Of a stretch of DNA of 64,000 nt, positions 2,644 through 61,979 are shown piece after piece (the stretch's first letter is position 1; each line of letters begins with the position of its first letter). Made by a program: the position numbers and the translations under genes. This DNA is from Octopus sinensis (Eukaryota). The stretch covers positions 48,744,464 through 48,808,463 of the forward strand of contig NC_043011.1 of NCBI RefSeq assembly GCF_006345805.1. The letters are read 5' to 3'. Below the pieces are notes generated by a model that ran no database searches, was not told the origin of the DNA, and worked only from the letters and a program-made list of their open reading frames with translations.

Positions 2644-3030
2644 ACTTTTGTGCCTTTTCTGTGCAAAAGACAGGAGGGTTCTTTGCCCTGTTTTGGAGGC
2701 TTGTTTTGTTGACATGTTCGTGTTGAGTATCAGACTTACAAAAAACGTTTTTCAAAATGTCTTCTCTCTCTCTTTTTTTTTTTTTTTTTTACTTAGTATG
2801 TATTTATGTTGTTGAATTGATTATAAACAAATTACAAAAAAAAAATATCATCCTAATTTGGAAAATTGGCAGAATTGGGAAAAAGATGCTTTGTAAAGGT
2901 AAGAAACAGCAACAAGAACAGCATAAACAACCAGGCAGAAAATGAGAATGAGATGGTGATGAGGAAGGAGAAGGCGAAATAAAGAAACTAGAACAAAAAG
3001 TTAGAATAGGAAAAAGAATTTATAAGACTG

Positions 3031-3735
3031 AAAGATGATGATGATGAAGAAGAAGAAGAAAAAGAAGAAGAAGAAGAAGAAGAAGAAGAAGAAATGATGA
3101 AGAAGAAGAAGAAGAAGAAGAAGAAGAAGAAGAAGAAGAAGAAGAAGAAGAAATGATGAAGAAGAAGAAGAAGAAGAAGAAGAAGAAAAAGAAGAAGAAG
3201 AAGAAGAAATGAAGAAGAAGAAGAAATGAAGAAGAAGAAGAAATGAAGAAGAAGAAGAAATGAAGAAGAAGAAGAAGAAGAAATGAAGAAGAAGAAGAAG
3301 AAAAGAAGAAGAAGAAGAAATGATGAAGAAGAAGAAGAAAAGAAGACGAAGAAGAAGAAGAAGAAGAAGAAATGATGAAGAAGAAGAAGAAATGATGAAG
3401 AAGAAGAAGAAGAAAAGAAGAAGAAGAAGAAGAAGAAGAAGAAATGATGAAGAAGAAGAAGAAGAAGAAGAAGAAGAAGAAAGAGAAGAAGAAGAAGAAG
3501 AAGAAATGAAGAAGAAGAAGAAGAAGAAGAAGAAGAAGAAGAGAAGACGAAGAAGAAGAAGAAGAAGAAGAAATGATGAAGAAGAAGAAATGATGAAGAA
3601 GAAGAAGAAGAAAGAAGAAGAAGAAGAAGAAAAGAAGAAGAAGAAATGATGAAGAAGAGGAGGAGCAGCAGGATGCAAGAGGGGAAGAGAGGAGGGCAAA
3701 GAGGAGGAGGAGGAGGAGGAGGAAAAGAAGAAGAC
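3031..3735. repeat. (GAA)n with GAAATGAT interruptions, then (GAG)n
   Basis: Direct reading. Confidence 0.95.
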
Positions 3736-4415
3736 AGAGGTTTCTAAAATTTTCCAAAAATGTATTTATGATCAATAAAATTCAAGACTAAAATGAAAGC
3801 ATTAGAGATTAAAAAAAAAAAAAAAAGAAAGACTTCTACAATTCTAAACTGTAATTCAGAGATTAAGTCATATATATCCCCTGTTTGCACTACTGAACAG
3901 CTACCCCTCCCCCCTTTTGTCTGTCTCTCTCTCTCTCTCTCTCCCTCTCTCTCTTCCTCTCTCTCTTCCTGACATAAATCTGGTAGCCGTTTCACCAAGC
4001 TGTTATATTAACTTCATTCTAGCCCATAACAAATGCTGCTTCCTTGCATTCTACAATGACTTATAGCTAAATCCGTAGACTGATATATCCTATTAATAAA
4101 TGTTGTGAAGTTTTAAGTTGATCTCTGCAATTCTAGGACTTTTTTTTTCTCTCTCTCTCTTTTTTTTTTTTTTTTTTACTTAGTATGTATTTATGTTGTT
4201 GAATTGATTATAAACAAATTACAAAAAAAAAATATCATCCTAATTTGGAAAATTGGCAGAATTGGGAAAAAGATGCTTTGTAAGGTAAGAAACAGCAACA
4301 AGAACAGCATAAACAACCAGGCAGAAAATGAGAATGAGATGGTGATGAGGAAGGAGAAGGCGAAATAAGAAACTAGAACAAAAAGTTAGAATAGGAAAAA
4401 GAATTTATAAGACTG

Positions 4416-5360
4416 AAAGATGATGATGATGAAGAAGAAAGAAAAAAGAAGAAGAAGAAGAAAAGAAAAGAAGAAATGATGAAGAGAAGAAGAAAAAGAA
4501 GACGAAGAAGAAGAAGAAGAAGAAGAAATGATAAGAAGAAGAAGAAGAGAAAAGAAGAAGAAAAAAGAAGAAGAAGAAGAATGAAGAAGAAGAAATGAAG
4601 AAGAAGAAGAAGAAGAAATGAAGAAGAAGAAGAAGAAAGAAGAAGAAGAAATGATGAAGAAGAAGAAGAATAAGAAGAAGAAGAAAAGAAGAAGAAGAAA
4701 TGATGAAGAAGAAAAAGAAGAGAAGAAGAAGAAAAGAGAAGAAGAAGAAGAAATGAAGAAGAAGAAGAAGAAGAAGAAGAAGAAGAAATGAGAAGAAGAA
4801 GAAGAAAAGAAAAGAAGAAGAAATGATGAAGAAGAAGAAGAAGAGAAGAAGAAGAAGAAGAAGAAGAAAGATGAAGAAGAAGAAGAAGAAAGGAAGAAGA
4901 AGAAAGGAAGAAGAAAAGAAGAAGAAAGAAGAAGAAGAAGAAGAAATGATGAAGAAGAGAAGAAAAAGAAGAAGAGAAGAAGAAGAAGAAGAAATGATGA
5001 AGAAGAAGAAGAAAAAAGAGAAGAAGAAGAAAAGAAGAAGAAGAAGAAGAAGAAGAAAAAGAAGAGAAGAAGAAGAAAAGAAAAGAAGAAGAAGAAGAAT
5101 GAAGAAGAAAAAGAAGAGAAAAGAAGAAGAAGAGAAATGATGAGAAGAAGAAGAAAAGAAGACGAAGAAGAAGAAGAAAAGAAGAAATGATGAAGAGAAG
5201 AAGAAGAAAGGAAGAAGAAGAAAGAAGAAGAAGAAGAAAAGAGAAGAAGAAGAAGAAAAAGAAGAAGAAATGATGAAGAAGAGGAGGAGCAGCAGGATGC
5301 AAGAGGGGAAGAGAGGAGGGCAAAGAGGAGGAGGAGGAGGAGGAGGAAAAGAAGAAGACA
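4416..5360. repeat. (GAA)n tract, second copy, longer and with many 1-bp indels
   Basis: Direct reading. Confidence 0.95.
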
Positions 5361-6162
5361 GAGGTTTCTAAAATTTTCCAAAAATGTATTTATGATCAAT
5401 AAAATTCAAGACTAAAATGAAAGCATTAGAGATTAAAAAAAAAAAAGAAAGACTTCTACAATTCTAAACTGTAATTCAGAGATTAAGTCATATATATCCC
5501 CTGTTTGCACTACTGAACAGCTACCCCTCCCCCTTTTGTCTGTCTCTCTCTCTCTCTCTCTCCCTCTCTCTCTTCCTCTCTCTCTTCCTGACATAAATCT
5601 GGTAGCCGTTTCACCAAGCTGTTATATTAACTTCATTCTAGCCCATAACAAATGCTGCTTCCTTGCATTCTACAATGACTTATAGCTAAATCCGTAGACT
5701 GATATATCCTATTAATAAATGTTGTGAAGTTTTAAGTTGATCTCTGCAATTCTTGGACTTTTTTTTTCTCTCTCTCTCTCTCTTTCCTCTTTTTTTTTTT
5801 TTTTCCATGAATGGGCTAAATTATTTTGACTGGTGTATAAATGATAGAGATAAGAAGATGGCTTATTTCACGTTCTTATAACATCTTTAATCTTGTCTAA
5901 AACTTAAAAGTACTTTCATCTTTCTAATTGGAGTGGAAAAACAACCCAAGAAAACTTTGTTTTTCACGATATTCTCATAAAGTTACACATAAACTATTCC
6001 GTGTTTACAACTTGAAGAGTTCCTGTTTTACTTTCATGCTGCTGGCGTGGCTGTGTGGTAAGAAACTTGCTTTCCAGCCACATGGTTCTGGGTTCAGTCC
6101 CATAGCATGACACCTTGAGCAAGTGTCTTTTCCATTAGATTCAAGCTAACAAAAGCTTTGTG

Positions 6163-6548
6163 CAGTTCTATATTTAAGGGATGAGGAATTATGTACATTA
6201 TTTACATTATTTACATTTTATGGATATTTGTCCTCATCTTGTTTGTTGTTAACACAACGTTTTGGCTGATATACCCTCCAGCCACTATGACATATGCCCA
6301 TGGGCATATGGCATAGTGGTTAAGAGTGCAGGCTGCTAACCCCAAGATTCCGACTTCAATTCCAAACAGTGACCTGAATATTAATAATAATAATCATAAC
6401 AATGAAAAATACCTTAGGAATGGGAACCCAGGTTCGAAACTTCCCAAAGACACCTGAAGAAGGTTGGAGGATATATCAGCTGAAACATTGTGTTAACAAC
6501 AAACAAGACGAAGACAAATATCCGTCAAATGTAAATAATGTAAATAAA
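6163..6548. mobile_element. Fold-back non-autonomous element: inverted dimer of tRNA-like head + hammerhead-like motif (Penelope-like)
   Basis: 12-bp TSD aaaagctttgtg (6151-6162 / 6549-6560); central palindrome 6282-6319; outer arms complementary; second copy at 41996. Confidence 0.85.
6449..6494 (+). ncRNA. Minimal type-I hammerhead ribozyme-like motif
   Basis: gacac CTGAAGA a ggttg-gaggatatat-cagct GAAA c att gtgtt: both core boxes, stem I gacac/gtgtt, stem II; activity untested. Confidence 0.6.
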
Positions 6549-8699
6549 AAAAGCTTTGTGAGTGGATTAGATAGACAGGGACTGAAAGAAGCCCATCATA
6601 TATATATTTCTCTGTTGCTTCTGTCCCTCTGCCCTTCGTGACTTTTTCTCTCTCCTCCCACTATCACATGACCTGTGACCAGCTAAACCTCTCTCATCCT
6701 TTTTTCAGTTTTGCTGTCGACCAGGTCAGTCATGCTTCTTTCCACTCCTACACCTTTTTCCTACACAGGTTGCTGACTTCTTCCTTCATCTAGACTTTCC
6801 ATCTGCCCCTCTCTCATCTCTAGTCCTACCGCACATTTTCATTTTCTTTTGCATTACCCCATGTTCATCTGCCTGGCAGCTACGTGGCTTTTCTTTTTTT
6901 TTTTTGTATATGTATGACTATTATAATTATTTCATTTTGTCATGTCTGTTTACATCATTGCTCTGGACATTCATTAGCCATTCACAGTGGCTTTTTGCCA
7001 CTGGAAACTACCAAAGTGAAAATATCAATGATAAAAGGCAAATGAACTGGGATTAATCCATACCAAAAACTCCAGGTCTATAAACAGTGAAATATTGCAG
7101 TAAATGTTTCTTGTGTAATCTGAAGTCTGCCCTGACAAAACATCCTAAGATCAAAGGCATTCCAACCATGATCATCCCATCGTTCTCTCAAACACTGAGG
7201 AACTAGGACTACTTTATACTGTATTGTGTTCTGTCTTTATTAAACAAGGTTGTATATAATGTGAGAAAGATTTGGCTAACATTTCTAGCAGATCCAGTGA
7301 CCATGTAGAGGCTCGACTCATTTGTTGGCTAATATCGTAATACATTAAACATGATTCTGTAGTGATATGATTGAAAGGAACTTAGCTCTTTTATTCTAAC
7401 CAGCTGAGTCACAATCTTTAATTTGCAACATACTATTAGTTAAGATAAGTAAACGGTAGTTTAGGAAAGCCCACATATATATGTGTGTGTAACTGTAGTT
7501 GTATGTAATGAAGTCAACACAAAGATTGATTACCAGCCTAGAAGTAGACAGACAGGCTTGGCATAGCTGACCCAGTCCACTTAACTCTGAATAAATATAA
7601 TTATACAAAACAGTTCATCACTAAACAGACAGGAGCACAATAACTTTGTTCTGCGTTTCCTTAGCCTGCAGCACCACTGAATTCCTCAAACTCTTCGAAT
7701 AATATAACTTGGTGAAAGATGACATCAGCCAAACTGACTTATAACTATAATGCAAATATCTCTTAAGCTCTGGTCATAGCTTTTACAGATCAGCACTTGG
7801 CTGTTGTTGCAAGGCAATAAATTGATAAGAAATAAATCATTCTTCTGGATAGAAAGCCAATCTACTGCAGGCAACATTCTGCTCGTAATCTCATTCTTAT
7901 TCCCAAATGTTTGATCAAGGAAGAGATGCAACGTAGAATAAATTATTCTGATTATAATAAACAGAACAAAATGCTTGCAGTTGATTAGAACTCGTGTACT
8001 CATTTTAACTCAAGGCATAAAAGCAAAAGTCTCCAAACAGTTCTCTTAAATATCCAATTGTTTATCAGACACAGAGCAAATATGCAGTGGTTAGTTCAAT
8101 AGTGTAGAGTGACCAAGTGTACAAAAAAAAAAAAAACAACCTAGATGGTCTTGATACTATGGGAAATAAGGTAATAAATTAGAAAAATTCATTATGAAAT
8201 GGTGAGAAACATGTTTATCACAGTTTCTATTCTAGGTTAATTATCAATATTGTTCTTGTGTCAACAATATGTCAGACAAATGAAAGATACGATAAATATA
8301 AATTTTTTTCTTAAAAGGAGAAAAAAAAAAAAAAGACAAGAATTAAATGTTAACTCTTTGTTTATCATGATTCATGTTGGAGTTTTATTTTTTTTTTTTA
8401 AACTTTTCCTCTGAGAAAAAAAAAAAAAAATGAGAGAGGAAACTTCTGTACTTAGATATTATTTTTTTTTATTTTCTTATTGGTGATGTTGGCATTGCTG
8501 TTGTTGCTGCTGCAGACACCTCACAGCAATAAGAGTGATTTTCTTGCAAAACAGTCATCTATTTTTACTTCCAAGAAGAATACAAGAATCGATCTTTTAG
8601 AAAGCAATATGTTGTCGAAATATTCTTCATCGCATGTAGGTAGATGTACGTTTCCTCAGACAGGAATTCTCCACTACACACTCACACATGCAAACATAC

Positions 8700-11354: not shown

Positions 11355-11490
11355 CAGTAAATCCCAAAAAGAAGAACAAACACAAAAAAACAACAGCATG
11401 AGGACTTGGTACATGTAAAGTATTAGCAGACACTCAGGGAAGGAAAGAAAGATGGTTTAACATTTCAAGCAGACACACTTCTTCAGGAGA
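11355..11490 (-). mobile_element. Degenerate copy of the hammerhead-containing repeat seen at 61510-61945
   Basis: Reverse complement reads ctgaagaag...cttgaaatgttaaaccatctttctttccttccctgag. Confidence 0.55.
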
Positions 11491-14411: not shown

Positions 14412-14751
14412 AATTTCGATTTTGGATTTGGTTTGCAAGATTCTTTATATGAGTTCGTGTGTTGAAGCATATTCTGTTGTGTCCGGGGAGAGTCATTTTC
14501 TTTTTGTGCCTTATTACGTAACACACTCACCAGTAAAATTTCCACTTATTTCTTATTTTAATTGTCCTAAAATTTTCGTTGCGTCTTGCAACCTTTTCAA
14601 TAGTTCTAAGAGTCGAAACTATTGAAAAGGTTGCGAGACACAACGAAAAGTTTAGGAAAATAAAAATAAGAAATAAGTGGAAATTTTACCAGTGAGTGTG
14701 TTACATAATAAGGCACAAAAAGAAAATGACTCTCCCCAGACACAACAGAAT
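14412..14751. mobile_element. Fold-back element with about 135-bp inverted arms and a possible left-only extension
   Basis: Arms 14471-14605 and 14617-14751, 11-nt loop; partial copy at 21481-21546. Confidence 0.8.
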
Positions 14752-21258: not shown

Positions 21259-21957
21259 CAGATCACAAATCAGCTACAGTTGAAAGTGGATACTTTTCTG
21301 AGGCTCAAACTTGTATGGTAATTTACTGTGCACCTAATGGATCTACTTCCACCCATATTTACAAATATATACATATATACAAATATATACAAATATATAC
21401 ATATTCTTTTAAATGGCGGTGCCCCGGCATGGCCACAGCTCGTGAGCTGAAACTAGATAAAATAAAATAAAATATATATACTGTTGTGTCTGGGGAGAGT
21501 AATTTTCTTTTTGTGCCTTGTAATTTAACACACTCACCGGTAAAATGTACGTATGTACGTGTGTATGCGTGTGCATGTATGTATATATGTGTGCGTATGC
21601 ATATGTATATATGTATGTATGTGAGTGCATCTGTATGCATGCATGCATTGGCATACACACACACTGACCCACACACATGCGCACAAACAAACAAAAAGGA
21701 ATGCAGTGTAAATAACGGAGAGAGTCAAGACAAAATTTCTTAAGAAAAAGTACATTTCAAATAAGTAAAACTTAATATCATGAATAACGATAGCAAAACC
21801 GGTCGATATATTAAAAATTATATTAAAACTATGTAAGTGTGCATATTTTCCTTTTTTAATTTCTTATATACATTACAACTCACCATGTGGGGATAATCGA
21901 AATTCCTCTTTTCTGTTACTACTACTACTACTATATATATATATATATATATATATG

Positions 21958-28700: not shown

Positions 28701-28950
28701 TAGGCGCAGGAGTGGCTGTATGCATGGTACCTTGGGCAAGTGTCTTCTGCTATAGCCTCGGGCTGACCAAAGCCTTGTGGGTGGATTTGGTAGACAGAAA
28801 CTGAAAGAATGTATGTTTGTGTGTCTGTGTTTGTCCTCCCAACATCGCTTGACAACTGATGCTGGTGTGTTTATGTCCCTGTAACTTAGCGGTTTGGCAA
28901 AAAGAGACTGATAGAATGAGTACTAGGCTTACAAAGAATAAGTCCTGAGG
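28701..28950 (+). mobile_element. SINE-A, internally deleted, fused tail-to-tail with an inverted copy
   Basis: aggcgcaggagtggctgt ... aagaataagtcctgagg. Confidence 0.85.
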
Positions 28951-29043
28951 CCTCTTTTGCCAAACCGCTAAGTTATGGGGACATAAACACACCAGTATCA
29001 GTTGTCAAGTGATGTTGGGGGGACAAACACAGTCACACAAACC

Positions 29044-29102
<59 letters not shown>

Positions 29103-29294
29103 CTATACATATACATATATCTATACATATACATATATACGATGGGCTTCTTTCAGTTTCCGCCTACCAAATCCACTCACAAGGCTTTGGCCAGCCCAAA
29201 GCTATAGTAGAAAACACTTGCCCAAGGTGCCACGCAGTGGGACTGAACCTGGAACCATGTGGTTGGTATGCAAGCTACTTACCACACAGCCACT
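28951..29294 (-). mobile_element. SINE-A
   Basis: Reverse complement of the reference copy, 3' end missing. Confidence 0.85.
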
Positions 29295-29476
29295 CACTTT
29301 AAATTCTTCAGTTATTTTGAAACATTCATCCAACATAACAGTCTTTATTCATGCAATTTCTTCTCAAATAACTACACTTCCTCAGCAAGGTCATTTATCA
29401 CATGAAAATCATGCTCTGTCTGATGGTTTTGCTCTTAAGTTAACCTTTTCTTAAATACTTTAGCTAATAGTATCAT

Positions 29477-39474: not shown

Positions 39475-40169
39475 GTTACCTGGTGGTGTGTATATATGTG
39501 AAATCATTTACGATATGGATAAAGAAATTATATGGTGGTCAAGATTTAAAAGATTGAAGTCAAACACTTTTCCTCTTTGACCAAGTCCTCATCAACTTCA
39601 AGTTCCACTTATAGAGCAATGTTAAGATGGAAAGGGTTGTACTGGCCTCTGTCATATTTGGAGAAAGACACATTAGAGTGCCCACTATAGCTCAAAAAGC
39701 TTTACTTTTAGTATGTTCCTGTAGGCAAGCAAACAGATGGGAGATGGCACTTGACCTAAGTAATCAGGGTACTTAAAGATATGAGGGGTACCTTGATTGG
39801 TCCTAGGTGACTCTATCTTTATTTGGACAACTCATTCAATTTCTTTTGTCCACTGTTGCTTTTCATATAACTTTTTAATGACCCCCCTCAAAGTCAATTG
39901 TTAATTGAACAAAGCATGTTACATGATTTTTATTAATTTTATTAACTTAGTTTATTTGATAAAGGCCTGTATGAGATTTCCTCTAATTTTATGACTCAAA
40001 ACTTTTTAATTTATGATGTTAATTTTCAAATTAAAACTTTCCATTAAAATTTTATGTAAGAGCCTTATGTTATATTTCAAACACCAGCTTAATAGGCAGA
40101 GGCTATTTTCTTAAATGCAGCTAAATTCTTTATTATTTTCAAAATTAATACAGATGCATGGACAATGCA

Positions 40170-40928
40170 AATGCAAAAGAAAACATCAAATTTAGAAGCA
40201 ATAGCTGCCAAACTAGGATTGAAAGTCAACCGCAACAAATCAAAAAATATGCGCATTAATGAAGAAGACAGCAAACGTATTAAAGTCGAAACCGGTGAAC
40301 TAGAGAATGTAGCTGAGTTTACGTATTTAGGTAGTAAGATAACGTTTACAGGTGGCACCGACGAAGATATTAAGACGAGAATAAGTAAGGCAAGGACCGC
40401 TTTTCACCGGTTAAAGAAAGTATGGAGCACAAGTGTAATTTCAATAAAGAACAAAATATGAATTTTTAACACTGATGTAAAAGCGGTGTTATTGTATGGA
40501 GCTGAGACATGGCGAACAACAGTTAAGTCAAATAAGCAAATACAATCATTCATCAACAGATGCTTGTGAAGTATACTTAAAATTAGATGGCCCAAACACA
40601 TAAACATAAGCAATATGGAGCTATGGCAAAGAACAAATCAAGTTTTGATTAGGGAGCAAATATTTAAGAAAAAGTGGAAGTGGATTAGTAGCACAATTAG
40701 AAAAGACACACCAAATGTAGCAAAAAGTGCTTTACAGTGGAAACTGGATGGATATAGACAGAGAAGTAGGCCTAAGAATTCGTGGTGGAGATCAACACAA
40801 AAGGAACTAGAAAAAGGGGGACATTCATGGCAGAGTATAAGTACAGAAGCCAAAAATTATGCGACATGGAATTCAGCTATAAGTGGACTATACGTTGAAG
40901 GGTTAAAGGCAGAAAAAGAAAAAACGAA
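40170..40928 (+). pseudogene. 5'-truncated RTE-clade LINE (RT C-terminal region), dead
   Basis: One frame reads KLGLKVNRNKSK..EFTYLGSKIT..DIKTRISKARTAF..VLLYGAETW..FINRCL*SILKIRWP..RQRSRPKNSWWR, with stops at 40459 and about 40567; TSD gcatg(g/a)acaatgca (40156-40169 / 40929-40942). Confidence 0.92.
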
Positions 40929-41995
40929 GCATGAACAATGCATTTCATTAGAAATATGCTCACAAAAGAGTTAAGAAAGATATGATGTAATGTTGATCTT
41001 GACAGGATTCGAACTCAGAAAGTAAAAGGAGATAATTAAATATAACAGAGCAATTAGTTGACCACTTTAGTGTTTCTGTCATTCCATTTAAAAGCACAGC
41101 ACACATTTCCTCTCAGAGACATTTGTGCTAGCTTTGATAAAAGGTATTTAAATTTCCTGCCTATTTCCTGCCATCAACCATAACACTTATTAAAAGATTT
41201 TCTGGTCCTTCATTATTTCATAATTAATCCTAATCACCTTCTAATTATCGCCGTACGTACTTCCTACATTTGACGAAAGGTATTTAAACTCTGGCTAAAT
41301 GACAAAAGATTCAATGAAATTTTGCAAAGTCTTTCACTGTTGCCGTTGTCATCATTCTCATCATTAGTCTTAGTTCAATGTCTATTCTTCGATGCTGGCA
41401 TAGGTTGAAGTTTGCCGAAGTAAATAGGAATTGAAATAAATTCTGACACTATAGTTCACAGAGAATAACATTCAATAACCAGCAGCCTTACATACTCGGT
41501 GGACATGTCTTCCATTCAACTTCGGCATTATCACTTTCAATTTGAAATAACATGTCTCTCTCTCTAACAATTCTTACCGAAAATTGGGACCTGAATTCAA
41601 TGAATTCTAGATTGAAATATGATTAATTCTTGAAAGTATTTTTAATCAGATTGCTTGATGCTGAAATAACTATAAAGTAGCGCTACACTCTGTGTACACT
41701 CTACTTTCTCAGTCCATTAGAAATCAGGAGAAATTTTAACTCAATTGTTAATGTTTAAATTAACAAGTGAAAACAAAATCAGTTTTCACTGTGAATGCTT
41801 TTAGTATTTCAATGTATTTTGCACAGCTATTATACCAATATAATGAATTAGTATTTTAGTTTTTGGTGTAGTACTAACTATCATATCAACATATGTGACT
41901 GCTATTCAGATATATTTTGTAAAAGTAACATTTTCCAATGCATTTTAGCCATATAACCACTATATCTTCATATGTGGTCAATATCTAATCTTTTA

Positions 41996-42173
41996 CAGTT
42001 CTATATATAAGAGATGAGGAATTATGTACATTATTTACATTCGACGGATATTTGTCCTCATCTTGTTTGTTGTTAACACAATGTTTTGGCCGATATACCC
42101 TCCAGCATTCTTCAGTTGTCTTTGGGAAATTTCTAACCTGGGTTCTCATTCCTAAGGTATTTTTTGATGTTAC

Positions 42174-42215
<42 letters not shown>

Positions 42216-42308
42216 GATTATTATTATTATTGTTCAAGTCACTGCTTGCAATCAAACTCAGAATCTTGGGGTGACCTGAACAATAACAATAATAACAACA
42301 ACAACAAC

Positions 42309-42357
<49 letters not shown>

Positions 42358-42542
42358 TTGAAAAATACCTTAGGAATGAGAACCCAGGTTAGAAATTTCC
42401 CAAAGACATCTAAGGAAAGCTGGCGAGTATATCAGCCAAAACCATTGTGTTAACAACAAACAAGATGAGGACAAATATCCGTCGAATGTAAATAATGTAA
42501 ATAATGTAAATAATGTAAATAATGTAAATAATGTAAATAATG
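41996..42542. mobile_element. Second copy of the fold-back tRNA-head/hammerhead element
   Basis: 13-bp TSD atctaatctttta (41983-41995 / 42543-42555); same left terminus cagttctatat; about 230-bp inverted arms; (aatgtaaat)x6 right end. Confidence 0.88.
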
Positions 42543-42544
42543 AT

Positions 42545-42752
42545 CTAATCTTTTAACTTTCAGATGACTCTGTCGAATTCAATGCTTGTTTTGAATAAAT
42601 CATGCATTATCTTGTAGCTTTGATATTTCGGTGATGTGATTGTGCATTATTAGAATGACATTGTAGAGTAGATGTGAGAGGCTGGATCTGGCCAGTTTGT
42701 ACAGACATCATGTTTGGGTCAGTTATAGCCAGCTTAAATGTTACAGGGTTAA
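42545..42752. mobile_element. TTAA-CCC MITE (second family)
   Basis: Ends acagggttaa; degenerate left TIR ctaatcttttaac. Confidence 0.7.
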
Positions 42753-51319: not shown

Positions 51320-52485
51320 TGTGTGTGTGTGTGTGTATGTATATTATAATTATATACATAATTATAACAAGGGTTTGGCTTGCGCCTCACCACACACTGA
51401 AAAATAGACATCAAAAGACATTATTACCACCATAAATTCTCTGAGAAAAACACACTACATAATAGGCTAGTAGAAGAAAGAAAATTAATTAGAACTTTGG
51501 TTAAATGCATACAGTATCATGTTTCAGGCTTAAAGTAATAAAAAATATTACCTTTTGCATTCATCGTTATGTATATAACTATAAAATTTACCTCTGAGGT
51601 TTAATTTCTACACTGACCACTTGGTAAAAATCATTTGTGATTTTACCCTTTATGATTATTATTATTATTATTATTATATTTATATATATATAGGAAAAAT
51701 GAACAAGGAGACAAACTCTCAGGATATTTAACAACATCCCGAGAGTTCGTCTCCTTGTTCATTTTTTCCTGTTTTCTACTAAATACAACTTACTATCATG
51801 GATTTAAATCCAGGGGCGCTTAAGCAACATTTAGCTACCTTGTAATTATTCCCCTGGATTCTTTTAAATTGTAAATTCTGTATACGTGTGTTTGTAAGTG
51901 TGAGTGTGTGTGTGTGTGTATGTATATTATAATTATATACATAATTATAACAAGGGTTTGGCTTGCGCCTCACCACACACTGAAAAATAGACATCAAAAG
52001 ACATTATTACCACCATAAATTCTCTGAGAAAAACACACTACATAATAGGCTAGTAGAAGAAAGAAAATTAATTAGAACTTTGGTTAAATGCATACAGTAT
52101 CATGTTTCAGGCTTAAAGTAATAAAAAATATTACCTTTTGCATTCATCGTTATGTATATAACTATAAAATTTACCTCTGAGGTTTAATTTCTACACTGAC
52201 CACTTGGTAAAAATCATTTGTGATTTTACCCTTTATGATTATTATTATTATTATTATTATATTTATATATATATAGGAAAAATGAACAAGGAGACAAACT
52301 CTCAGGATATTTAACAACATCCCGAGAGTTCGTCTCCTTGTTCATTTTTTCTGTTTTCTACTAAATACAACTTACTATCATGGATTTAAATCCAGGGGCG
52401 CTTAAGCAACATTTAGCTACCTTGTAATTATTCCCCTGGATTCTTTTAAATTGTAAATTCTGTATACGTGTGTTTGTAAGTGTGA

Positions 52486-61464: not shown

Positions 61465-61509
<45 letters not shown>

Positions 61510-61511
<2 letters not shown>

Positions 61512-61937
61512 TTCAATATGTGACCGCATGTGTATTGTTGGTGATTTTCTTTCTCCGTCTTCCCTTCCTTGGACCTTTTCTTTTTCTATGTTTCTGATGA
61601 AGAGTTCTGCTTGAAACGTTAAAACCTCCTTCTTTCTTTCCGTTCCTGAGTATCCAATAACACTATACTTGTTCCACATCCTTGCATTGTGTTTTCTCTT
61701 TGTTCATGTTTGGAGTAACTACATATATATATATATATATGTGGTGTGTGTGTGTACCATTGGCGATTTTTTTTCCTCTGTCTTCCCTTCTCTGGATCTT
61801 TCCTTCTCCTATGTTTCCGACAAAGAGCTCCGCTCGAAACGTTAAACCCTCCTTCTTTCCTTCTTTCCTGAGCATCCAATAACACTATACTTGTTCCACG
61901 TCCTTGCATTGTGTTTTCTCTTTGTTCATGTTTGGAG

Positions 61938-61945
<8 letters not shown>
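61510..61945 (+). mobile_element. Direct dimer of a hammerhead-containing short repeat (Penelope pLTR/retrozyme-like)
   Basis: Two units about 220 bp apart; gttt CTGATGA a gagt..gctt GAAA cgtt aaaac (61590-61625) and a degenerate second motif (61813-61847). Confidence 0.7.

Positions 61946-61979
<34 letters not shown>

Follow-up and report, generated by a model that had tools for sequence, protein, structure and literature searches.

The 547-nt non-coding insertion at 41996-42542 is made of two long inverted arms, and the question it raises is whether the palindrome itself is what moves, or whether a shorter element is copied into a head-to-head pair when it integrates. An earlier sequence-only reading held that this insertion and a copy at 6.2 kb confirm the fold-back as the mobile unit, which would insert as a whole and then be eroded by different deletions. 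Both loci lie in a 64-kb window, by which we mean the whole stretch of octopus DNA that was analysed.

Two fold-backs, each bracketed by a single TSD

The left terminus of 41996-42542, CAGTTCTATAT, starts at 41996, and the same start sequence is found at 6163 in the 6163-6548 copy. The insertion is bracketed by the 13-bp TSD ATCTAATCTTTTA, whose left (41983-41995) and right (42543-42555) copies, both read on the plus strand, match at 13/13 positions; this 13-mer occurs exactly twice in the window, and the flanks are 31% GC. The arms (42021-42240 versus 42272-42505) were identical in 206 of 235 columns, microsatellite tracts included, with an arm length of about 220-235 bp, and the predicted RNA fold of the insertion reached -294 kcal/mol (z -34.7), with 0 of 100 shuffles as stable. 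The second family locus, 6151-6560, lies inside another SINE and has a 12-bp TSD (6151-6162 and 6549-6560) around the element at 6163-6548. In eight matched paralogues of this host SINE, used as empty-site proxies, the target sequence was uninterrupted and present once. With one TSD pair per locus and an uninterrupted target at 6.2 kb, the earlier proposal that both arms integrated in one event is borne out, and the features on which that reading was built (left terminus, 13-bp TSD, inverted arms, six 9-mers versus two, a minus-strand CTGAAGA and a decayed GAAA) are all present in the sequence. A self-search of the window recovered these two family loci only, both of them fold-backs; no monomeric copy was found in the 64 kb, tandem units were likewise absent from both loci, and the 3' end of the element had no match beyond the two loci.

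Read outward from the centre, both arms show one and the same monomer. It measures about 280 nt and consists of a head resembling a tRNA, then (AAT)n, a body, a minimal hammerhead and the 9-mer. It follows that both outer ends of the insertion are monomer 3' ends, the "left terminus" included, a point that the sequence-only reading had missed. On the left arm (minus strand) the 3' half of the head is kept at 42232-42272, with a degenerate box B at 42248-42258 and box A lost, and 67 nt of (AAT)n at 42166-42236 separate head from body. The right arm (42271-42542, plus strand) keeps the last 7 nt of the head, followed by 80 nt of (AAT/AAC)n, the body and a decayed hammerhead. Only the left arm carries a 31-nt 3' extension, or "tail" (41996-42026, minus strand), the end of which is the invariant left terminus. 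The tail is identical to 6163-6193 at 29 of 31 positions, and the right arm is without it in both copies, a second point that had escaped the earlier reading. Next to the tail, at 42024-42041 (minus strand), lie one AATGTAAAT unit and a variant unit, AATGTACAT, which together amount to 1.67 perfect repeats. At the right integration junction (42485-42542, plus strand) there are six perfect AATGTAAAT units (42485-42538) plus AATG, versus two perfect units (6528-6545) in the 6.2-kb copy; the left-arm 9-mers vary too, with one plus the variant unit in 41996-42542 and two plus the variant at 6.2 kb.

The two loci are damaged in different places. At 6.2 kb a near-perfect palindromic centre of 38 bp is preserved (6282-6319, axis between 6300 and 6301). 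Relative to this centre, about 106 nt of the two heads are absent from 41996-42542, where the head-to-head junction (42271-42272) shows a 2-nt GT microhomology. The earlier description of a deleted centre with most of the tRNA head gone therefore stands, with the refinement that the loss is asymmetric, as the head is retained from about position 38 in the left arm, and only from position 68 in the right. This gap could reflect truncation at insertion or a later deletion, and the data fit both: two 5'-truncated cDNAs annealed at a microhomology would leave the same junction as a later loss from a perfect centre, so that post-insertion erosion is possible only, and the claim that the deletions postdate insertion does not follow. 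In the 6.2-kb copy it is the left arm that is shortened, by a 144-nt segment equivalent to 6319-6462 (gap at 6279-6285); here the tail-bearing arm carries the deletion and the other arm is complete. At neither locus does any arm today combine the two promoter boxes with the tail. The 144-nt gap can be placed exactly as GT..AG, which 0.5-0.7% of possible deletions can, and Penelope pLTRs can contain introns beside the hammerhead, as described in part of PMC4209133. Since the sites are weak, the test was post hoc and the junction of a related peptide (P0020, see below) misfits the same acceptor, we treat splicing as a lead only.

In their cores the two arms of 41996-42542 differ in a single region. 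All eight core differences are confined to the 34 hammerhead columns (42072-42120 versus 42404-42445), and the other 104/104 positions are identical, a clustering with P 1.4e-4 for the core, 0.005 for the whole non-microsatellite arm and 0.002 by Fisher test. Among the arms compared, two sites carry three different bases in three arms. Ideas that might account for the cluster are arm-to-arm conversion that halted at a group of mismatches, or two templates that differed only there; it was reported, in the portion of PMC4209133 on this subject, that the hammerheads of Penelope-like elements (PLEs) are highly variable within genomes. When shared variants were compared among the four arms, one site grouped the arms by copy and none by side, which is weak as this is a single CpG site.

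Other repeats were noted in the window. An unrelated palindrome at 14416-14751 has arms of about 140 bp (90%) and is extended on the left side only, by about 55 nt; its 8-bp, AT-only TSD candidate is weak. The centre of the palindrome contains GAGTCGAAAC, which we take to resemble half a putative hammerhead. The tail-less end point of this palindrome is also where a fragment at 21476-21546 stops, and the palindrome may represent a second family that bears the same signature of integration. A 75-nt palindrome is present twice (51692-51766 and 52278-52352) within a tandem duplication of about 586 bp, and a composite SINE at 28703-29295 forms an inverted repeat with another nested in it (28721-28809 with 29148-29236; 28815-29042 self-inverted). 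Two GAA-rich simple-repeat blocks (2988-3781 and 4373-5405) have near-identical unique ends, suggesting a local duplication. A broken LINE-like RT fragment lies 1 kb to the left of 41996-42542, at 40089-40974 (RVT_1, E 0.034; DUF6451, E 3e-4), and has no visible link to the insertion.

The tRNA-like head and the hammerhead

The complete tRNA-like head is found at 6302-6375 (plus strand), with an exact box A (6309-6319) and a degenerate box B (6353-6363) that has three mismatches. The boxes, at 6309 and 6353, are 44 nt apart, a spacing equal to that of six other SINE heads in the window, so that internal Pol III boxes at tRNA spacing, as in tRNA-derived SINEs, are present. With a profile of those six heads, in a test that is partly circular, the 6.2-kb head was the best match outside their families and scored above 20,000 shuffles. 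ARAGORN reported no tRNA genes and did not call the head down to -ps70. A search with Rfam gave no gathering-level matches in the window; at the E-value level both loci yielded chance hairpin matches only, with no tRNA or hammerhead family among them, and a neighbouring SINE head was also without an Rfam tRNA match. T4 runs were absent from the sense strands of all four arms, and every antisense strand had one or two, which fits Pol III transcription that would run outward from the centre. Because the Pol III boxes also face outward from the centre of the element, the RNA intermediate probably corresponds to the monomer, and integration is probably the step at which the fold-back arises.

As for the hammerhead, those of metazoan PLEs belong to a minimal type in which one additional nucleotide precedes helix II and the helix III site is palindromic (PMC4209133, in its account of these motifs). 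Our test for a minimal type I hammerhead asked for CUGANGA, an extra nucleotide, a helix II of 6-8 bp, GAAA and a palindromic helix III site. The descriptor found two sites in the window, versus a mean of 0.05 in 20 shuffles, one of which is at 6454. The best-kept motif of the family, at 6449-6494 (plus strand), has a 5-bp helix I, CTGAAGA, the extra nucleotide, a 6-bp helix II and GAAA, with the palindromic helix III site decayed; the ACGT of that site survives in the left arm of the 6.2-kb copy only. Its MFE fold yields helices I and II, at an energy no better than that of shuffles (z -0.95). In 41996-42542 the left-arm motif (42072-42120, minus strand) keeps CTGAAGA at 42109-42115, and GAAA reads AAAA at 42084-42087; it fails the descriptor and gives no hammerhead fold. 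The right arm has both boxes decayed, to CTAAGGA (42410-42416) and AAAA (42438-42441). All four hammerheads, in two arms at each of two loci, are decayed.

A second, unrelated minimal-hammerhead family is present at 61505-61950 as two head-to-tail units, identical at 182 of 208 positions. Its first unit passes the hammerhead descriptor at 61594 and has a palindromic AACGTT site, and a third, decayed copy lies at 11368-11486 on the minus strand. The arrangement at 61505-61950 looks like a partial-tandem pLTR or a retrozyme dimer.

Relatives and known elements

Relatives of the element can be followed through peptides predicted elsewhere. The translated left arm of 41996-42542 matches an Octopus bimaculoides UniRef entry (P0003) at 80% identity over 89% of the query, which indicates that the family is present in Octopus. 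When the open frame of the arm was searched against protein representatives, 47 matches were obtained and sorted by eye; after removal of two unrelated ones (P0022 and P0045) before counting, 21 were assigned to this family or near subfamilies and 24 to a sister family. These comparisons are made at the amino-acid level and favour junctions across which the reading frame stays open. Among the 21 family peptides, six end at the last codon of the tail, eight are tail-less and end about 10 codons earlier within the 9-mers, and seven are ambiguous. The fixed left terminus described earlier thus extends from 2/2 loci to 6/21 peptides that end at the same codon, and the variation of left termini that would have contradicted the earlier reading did not appear. 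Where the six tail-bearing ends mostly read as the variant unit (H in three, R, K and N in one each), the tail-less ends read N in 8/8 cases, which corresponds to one extra perfect 9-mer. This lends some support to the earlier suggestion of RT slippage at the right junction, the tail-less peptide ends being one 9-mer longer in all eight cases; against it, the 9-mer number also varies internally, in the 6.2-kb left arm and in P0025.

Several of these peptides span junctions. P0025 represents a third fold-back with a different junction, in which both heads are gone and the tail-less arm apparently has about one 9-mer. P0020 reproduces the palindromic centre of the 6.2-kb copy exactly, and its arm deletion is almost identical, being offset by two codons. 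Both P0020 and P0025 are broken at one and the same hammerhead position, to within about two codons. The likeness of P0020 to the 6.2-kb copy could be due to a breakpoint hotspot, to an inherited asymmetric palindrome or to orthology. In P0020 the element centre and the hammerhead segment form the first exon or exons of an EF-hand gene model (PF09068 match), a possible exonisation or annotation artefact; the model is presumably dystrobrevin-like. No downstream exon of it was found in the window near the 6.2-kb locus, where 6 kb are covered on that side. In the sister family, 6 of the 24 matches contain an antisense arm joined, at differing points, to sense units, of which several are tandem.

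An autonomous partner was sought in the same material. The 547-nt insertion has no ORF with the PLE-type RT and GIY-YIG endonuclease of an autonomous PLE, and the open frames of its arms had no Pfam match. No long protein was found for the open frame (four candidates, none of which scored), none of the 47 open-frame matches was recognisable as an RT (six of them were scanned against Pfam), and the frame that opens the tail with ATG gave no long partner protein, each of these being a weak negative. A collection of bacterial and archaeal genomes, scanned twice for stray host DNA, contained no match to the element.

The architecture of the two loci has close parallels among PLEs, for which we cite the relevant passages of each source. 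PLE insertions often include an inverted copy that is truncated at its 5' end, and one of their ends often bears a tail of 30-40 bp (PMC8557442), an anatomy restated in PMC8969392. In Adineta, Pen2a was shown to have a 31-bp tail on one inverted pLTR, TSDs are 8-10 bp, head-to-head is the usual arrangement and the head-to-head junctions carry 18-38-bp palindromes or microhomologies (PMC3846280). It was also demonstrated that purified PAc nicks and extends both strands and that its RT starts at two internal sites, the interval between which corresponds to the tail (PMC11167929). In our element the inverted, head-to-head, 5'-truncated copy is found at 2/2 loci and in P0025, the one-sided tail, 31 nt long, is on the left arm at 2/2 loci, and a minimal type I hammerhead is represented by the 6454 site. 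Together with the variable TSD this is the published PLE signature, and insertion by PLE enzymes is therefore likely. With the EN+ PLEs (Penelope/Poseidon, Neptune; Pen2a_Av, PAc) the element shares the head-to-head inverted copy, a one-sided tail of about 31 nt, the variable TSD, a palindrome or microhomology at the inverted junction, the minimal type I hammerhead and an AT-rich target. Unlike them, it is without an RT/GIY-YIG ORF, its unit is about 280 nt, it has 9-mer runs at the tail-less end, and its head has Pol III-type boxes whereas theirs is a pLTR Pol II promoter. The fold-back is thus a known footprint of PLE integration and the architecture is not new; what is unusual is a SINE-type head on a PLE-type tail and the extra 9-mers at tail-less ends.

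Among the known non-autonomous derivatives of PLEs are animal non-LTR retrozymes (10.64898/2026.07.22.740005; PMC7229834), MRC1 of Chlamydomonas (PMC8557442) and short Penelopes of Heliconius (PMC6685494), as far as the cited parts of these sources go. Like our element they are non-coding, have a PLE-like 3' part and are presumed to use PLE enzymes, and the retrozymes have type I hammerheads. In the parts referred to, retrozymes and MRC1 are described as head-to-tail tandems with no tRNA head mentioned, whereas the octopus loci are single inverted pairs, and at neither locus is there a head-to-tail tandem of at least two units with intact hammerheads such as defines a non-LTR retrozyme. Sm-alpha and Sj-alpha of schistosomes are also short, tRNA-related, Pol III-transcribed and equipped with a hammerhead (PMC2770079, PMC6765202); in the passages concerned they are tandem repeats cleaved from multimers, with no mention of an inverted pair, a one-sided tail or a PLE partner. 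With tRNA-derived SINEs, such as those in SINEBase and the octopus OK and OR families, the element shares its short length, tRNA-like head, body, simple-repeat end and TSD. SINEBase, in its definition, makes SINE reverse transcription dependent on a partner LINE (PMC3531059), whereas the 3' part and insertion signature of the octopus element are PLE-like by motif and signature. In the O. vulgaris assembly, PLEs were given as 6.83% and SINEs as 11.6% in the relevant section of PMC13282606. The literature searched, to the exclusion of subscription papers and repeat libraries, described neither a PLE passenger with a tRNA head nor this octopus family, and there is nothing on the fold-back family in the cited passages of PMC6962438 and PMC10886601. 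Earlier work on octopus, by Albertin in 2015, reportedly included a SINE named "Twin".

How the head-to-head pair may be built

The single TSD at each locus, the polarity of the arms, the one-sided tail, the junction and the decay of all four hammerheads are direct evidence. From these we consider it reasonably probable that the element is a decayed octopus repeat whose unit was likely transcribed as a monomer and likely inserted by PLE enzymes, which would build the head-to-head pair during integration, by priming on two strands. Pol III would transcribe one arm outward from the centre, and a competent source would be only a tail-bearing arm with both boxes. By analogy with the biochemistry of PAc, a PLE protein would nick both strands 12-13 nt apart and prime cDNA from both ends; one cDNA would start at a distal site in the RNA and keep the tail, giving the left arm, and the other would start at an internal site in the 9-mers, giving the tail-less right arm. 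At that internal site the 1.67-repeat template may be copied again, adding 9-mers in a telomerase-like manner. The cDNAs would then be joined 5' end to 5' end, in a perfect centre if full length (6.2 kb) or by microhomology if truncated, and a perfect centre may also be deleted later. That the RNA was a monomer is suggested by the outward boxes, the two fixed classes of 3' end, the mixed inverted and tandem joins of the sister family and the one copy-grouping versus zero side-grouping sites; moreover, an RNA of both arms would bury the hammerheads in one hairpin. Against two-strand priming it has to be said that no autonomous partner was found, that no monomer is present in the window and that 2/2 loci are fold-backs. 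If the centre and deletion of P0020 were inherited, an arm without box B would have had to be carried inside a palindrome. The clustering of arm differences in the hammerhead, which is left unexplained, and the failure of ARAGORN and Rfam to recognise the head also count against this explanation as a whole. Renewed copying of the 9-mers, for its part, sits poorly with the roughly one unit on the tail-less arm of P0025 and with a 9-mer number that varies away from the junction too.

The same observations bear on other explanations. That a palindromic master was transcribed whole, reverse-transcribed, inserted as a unit and eroded by different deletions, as the sequence-only reading had it, appears unlikely to us. 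It would account for 2/2 loci being fold-backs of the same polarity and for the perfect centre that the 6.2-kb copy and P0020 share along with a nearly identical arm deletion, and asymmetric microhomology deletion is to be expected at palindrome centres. However, the promoter boxes are central and face outward, the RNA of both arms would be the -294 kcal/mol hairpin, the predicted fold of which pairs the hammerhead regions arm to arm, and the left end, which is fixed to the nucleotide, would have to be a 5' end. Shared variants also give no side-specific site versus one that is copy-specific, and the sister family mixes inverted and tandem units with varied joins. Given that the insertion is bounded on both sides by 3' ends of the element, and that its anatomy is as reported for PLE integration in parts of PMC8557442, PMC3846280 and PMC11167929, the palindrome itself is the less likely candidate for the mobile unit, and two copies alone confirm neither this claim nor that of post-insertion deletion. 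Fold-back self-priming by PLE enzymes, in which the second arm is made from the first antisense strand and a single RNA, the tail-less end is cut and joined and the arm differences and deletions arise after insertion, seems rather improbable. It was proposed to act on an antisense template at head-to-head junction palindromes (the passage in PMC3846280), and the identity of the arms of 41996-42542 at 104/104 core positions outside the hammerhead would agree with it; but the 6.2-kb copy, where the tail-bearing arm is deleted and the other complete, then needs a later deletion, self-priming alone gives no extra 9-mers at tail-less ends, and PAc extends both strands in vitro (PMC11167929, in the part cited). 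Dependence on PLE enzymes, which is common to two-strand priming and self-priming and compatible with a palindromic master, is likely.

Explanations without PLE enzymes fare worse. The tRNA-like head, the variable 12-13-bp TSD and the tandem-repeat right end would suit an ordinary tRNA SINE mobilised by a LINE, with 5' inversion by twin priming and the 9-mers as a normal slippage tail, and an LINE RT fragment is at hand at 40096-40458 (weak RVT_1 match, E 0.034). Twin priming, however, yields a single copy that is partly inverted, with no second 3' end on the other side, it leaves the one-sided 31-nt tail and the PLE-type hammerhead unaccounted for, and the self-search found no further match in the window to the 3' end of the element, so we hold this to be very improbable. 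We give hardly any weight to a fold-back DNA transposon or MITE, to two separate insertions or to an assembly artefact. The long inverted arms and the size are MITE-like, but a MITE has TIRs and a TSD of fixed length, and here one terminus is the tail and the other 9-mers, with TSDs of 13 versus 12 bp; one TSD brackets both arms, which argues against separate insertions; and the eight core differences between the arms would not be expected from a chimeric fold-back read, and the architecture recurs in P0025.

Should two-strand priming by PLE enzymes be confirmed, the element would be of use beyond its own family. The origin of the inverted copies and tails of PLEs was stated to be unresolved in passages of PMC8557442 and PMC3846280, and a short, probably high-copy element with arms that are often both complete would offer natural products in which two-strand priming, self-priming and palindrome copying could be separated by sequence. 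It would likewise allow telomerase-like repeat addition by a TERT-related RT to be tested. In its widest form the proposal is tentative and, taken as a whole, doubtful: a tRNA-headed SINE mobilised by PLE enzymes and not by a LINE, in which two-strand priming would make every insertion a self-regenerating head-to-head palindrome, with telomerase-like 9-mers from a 1.67-repeat internal template and a ready-made long dsRNA that possibly feeds octopus hyper-editing. If true, a Pol III-headed PLE passenger would widen the definition of SINEs, which are defined as passengers of LINEs. Octopus was found to have an exceptionally high fraction of dsRNA-forming loci and of hyper-editing (PMC5625713, in the part concerned), and a palindromic insertion forms dsRNA without a neighbouring partner.
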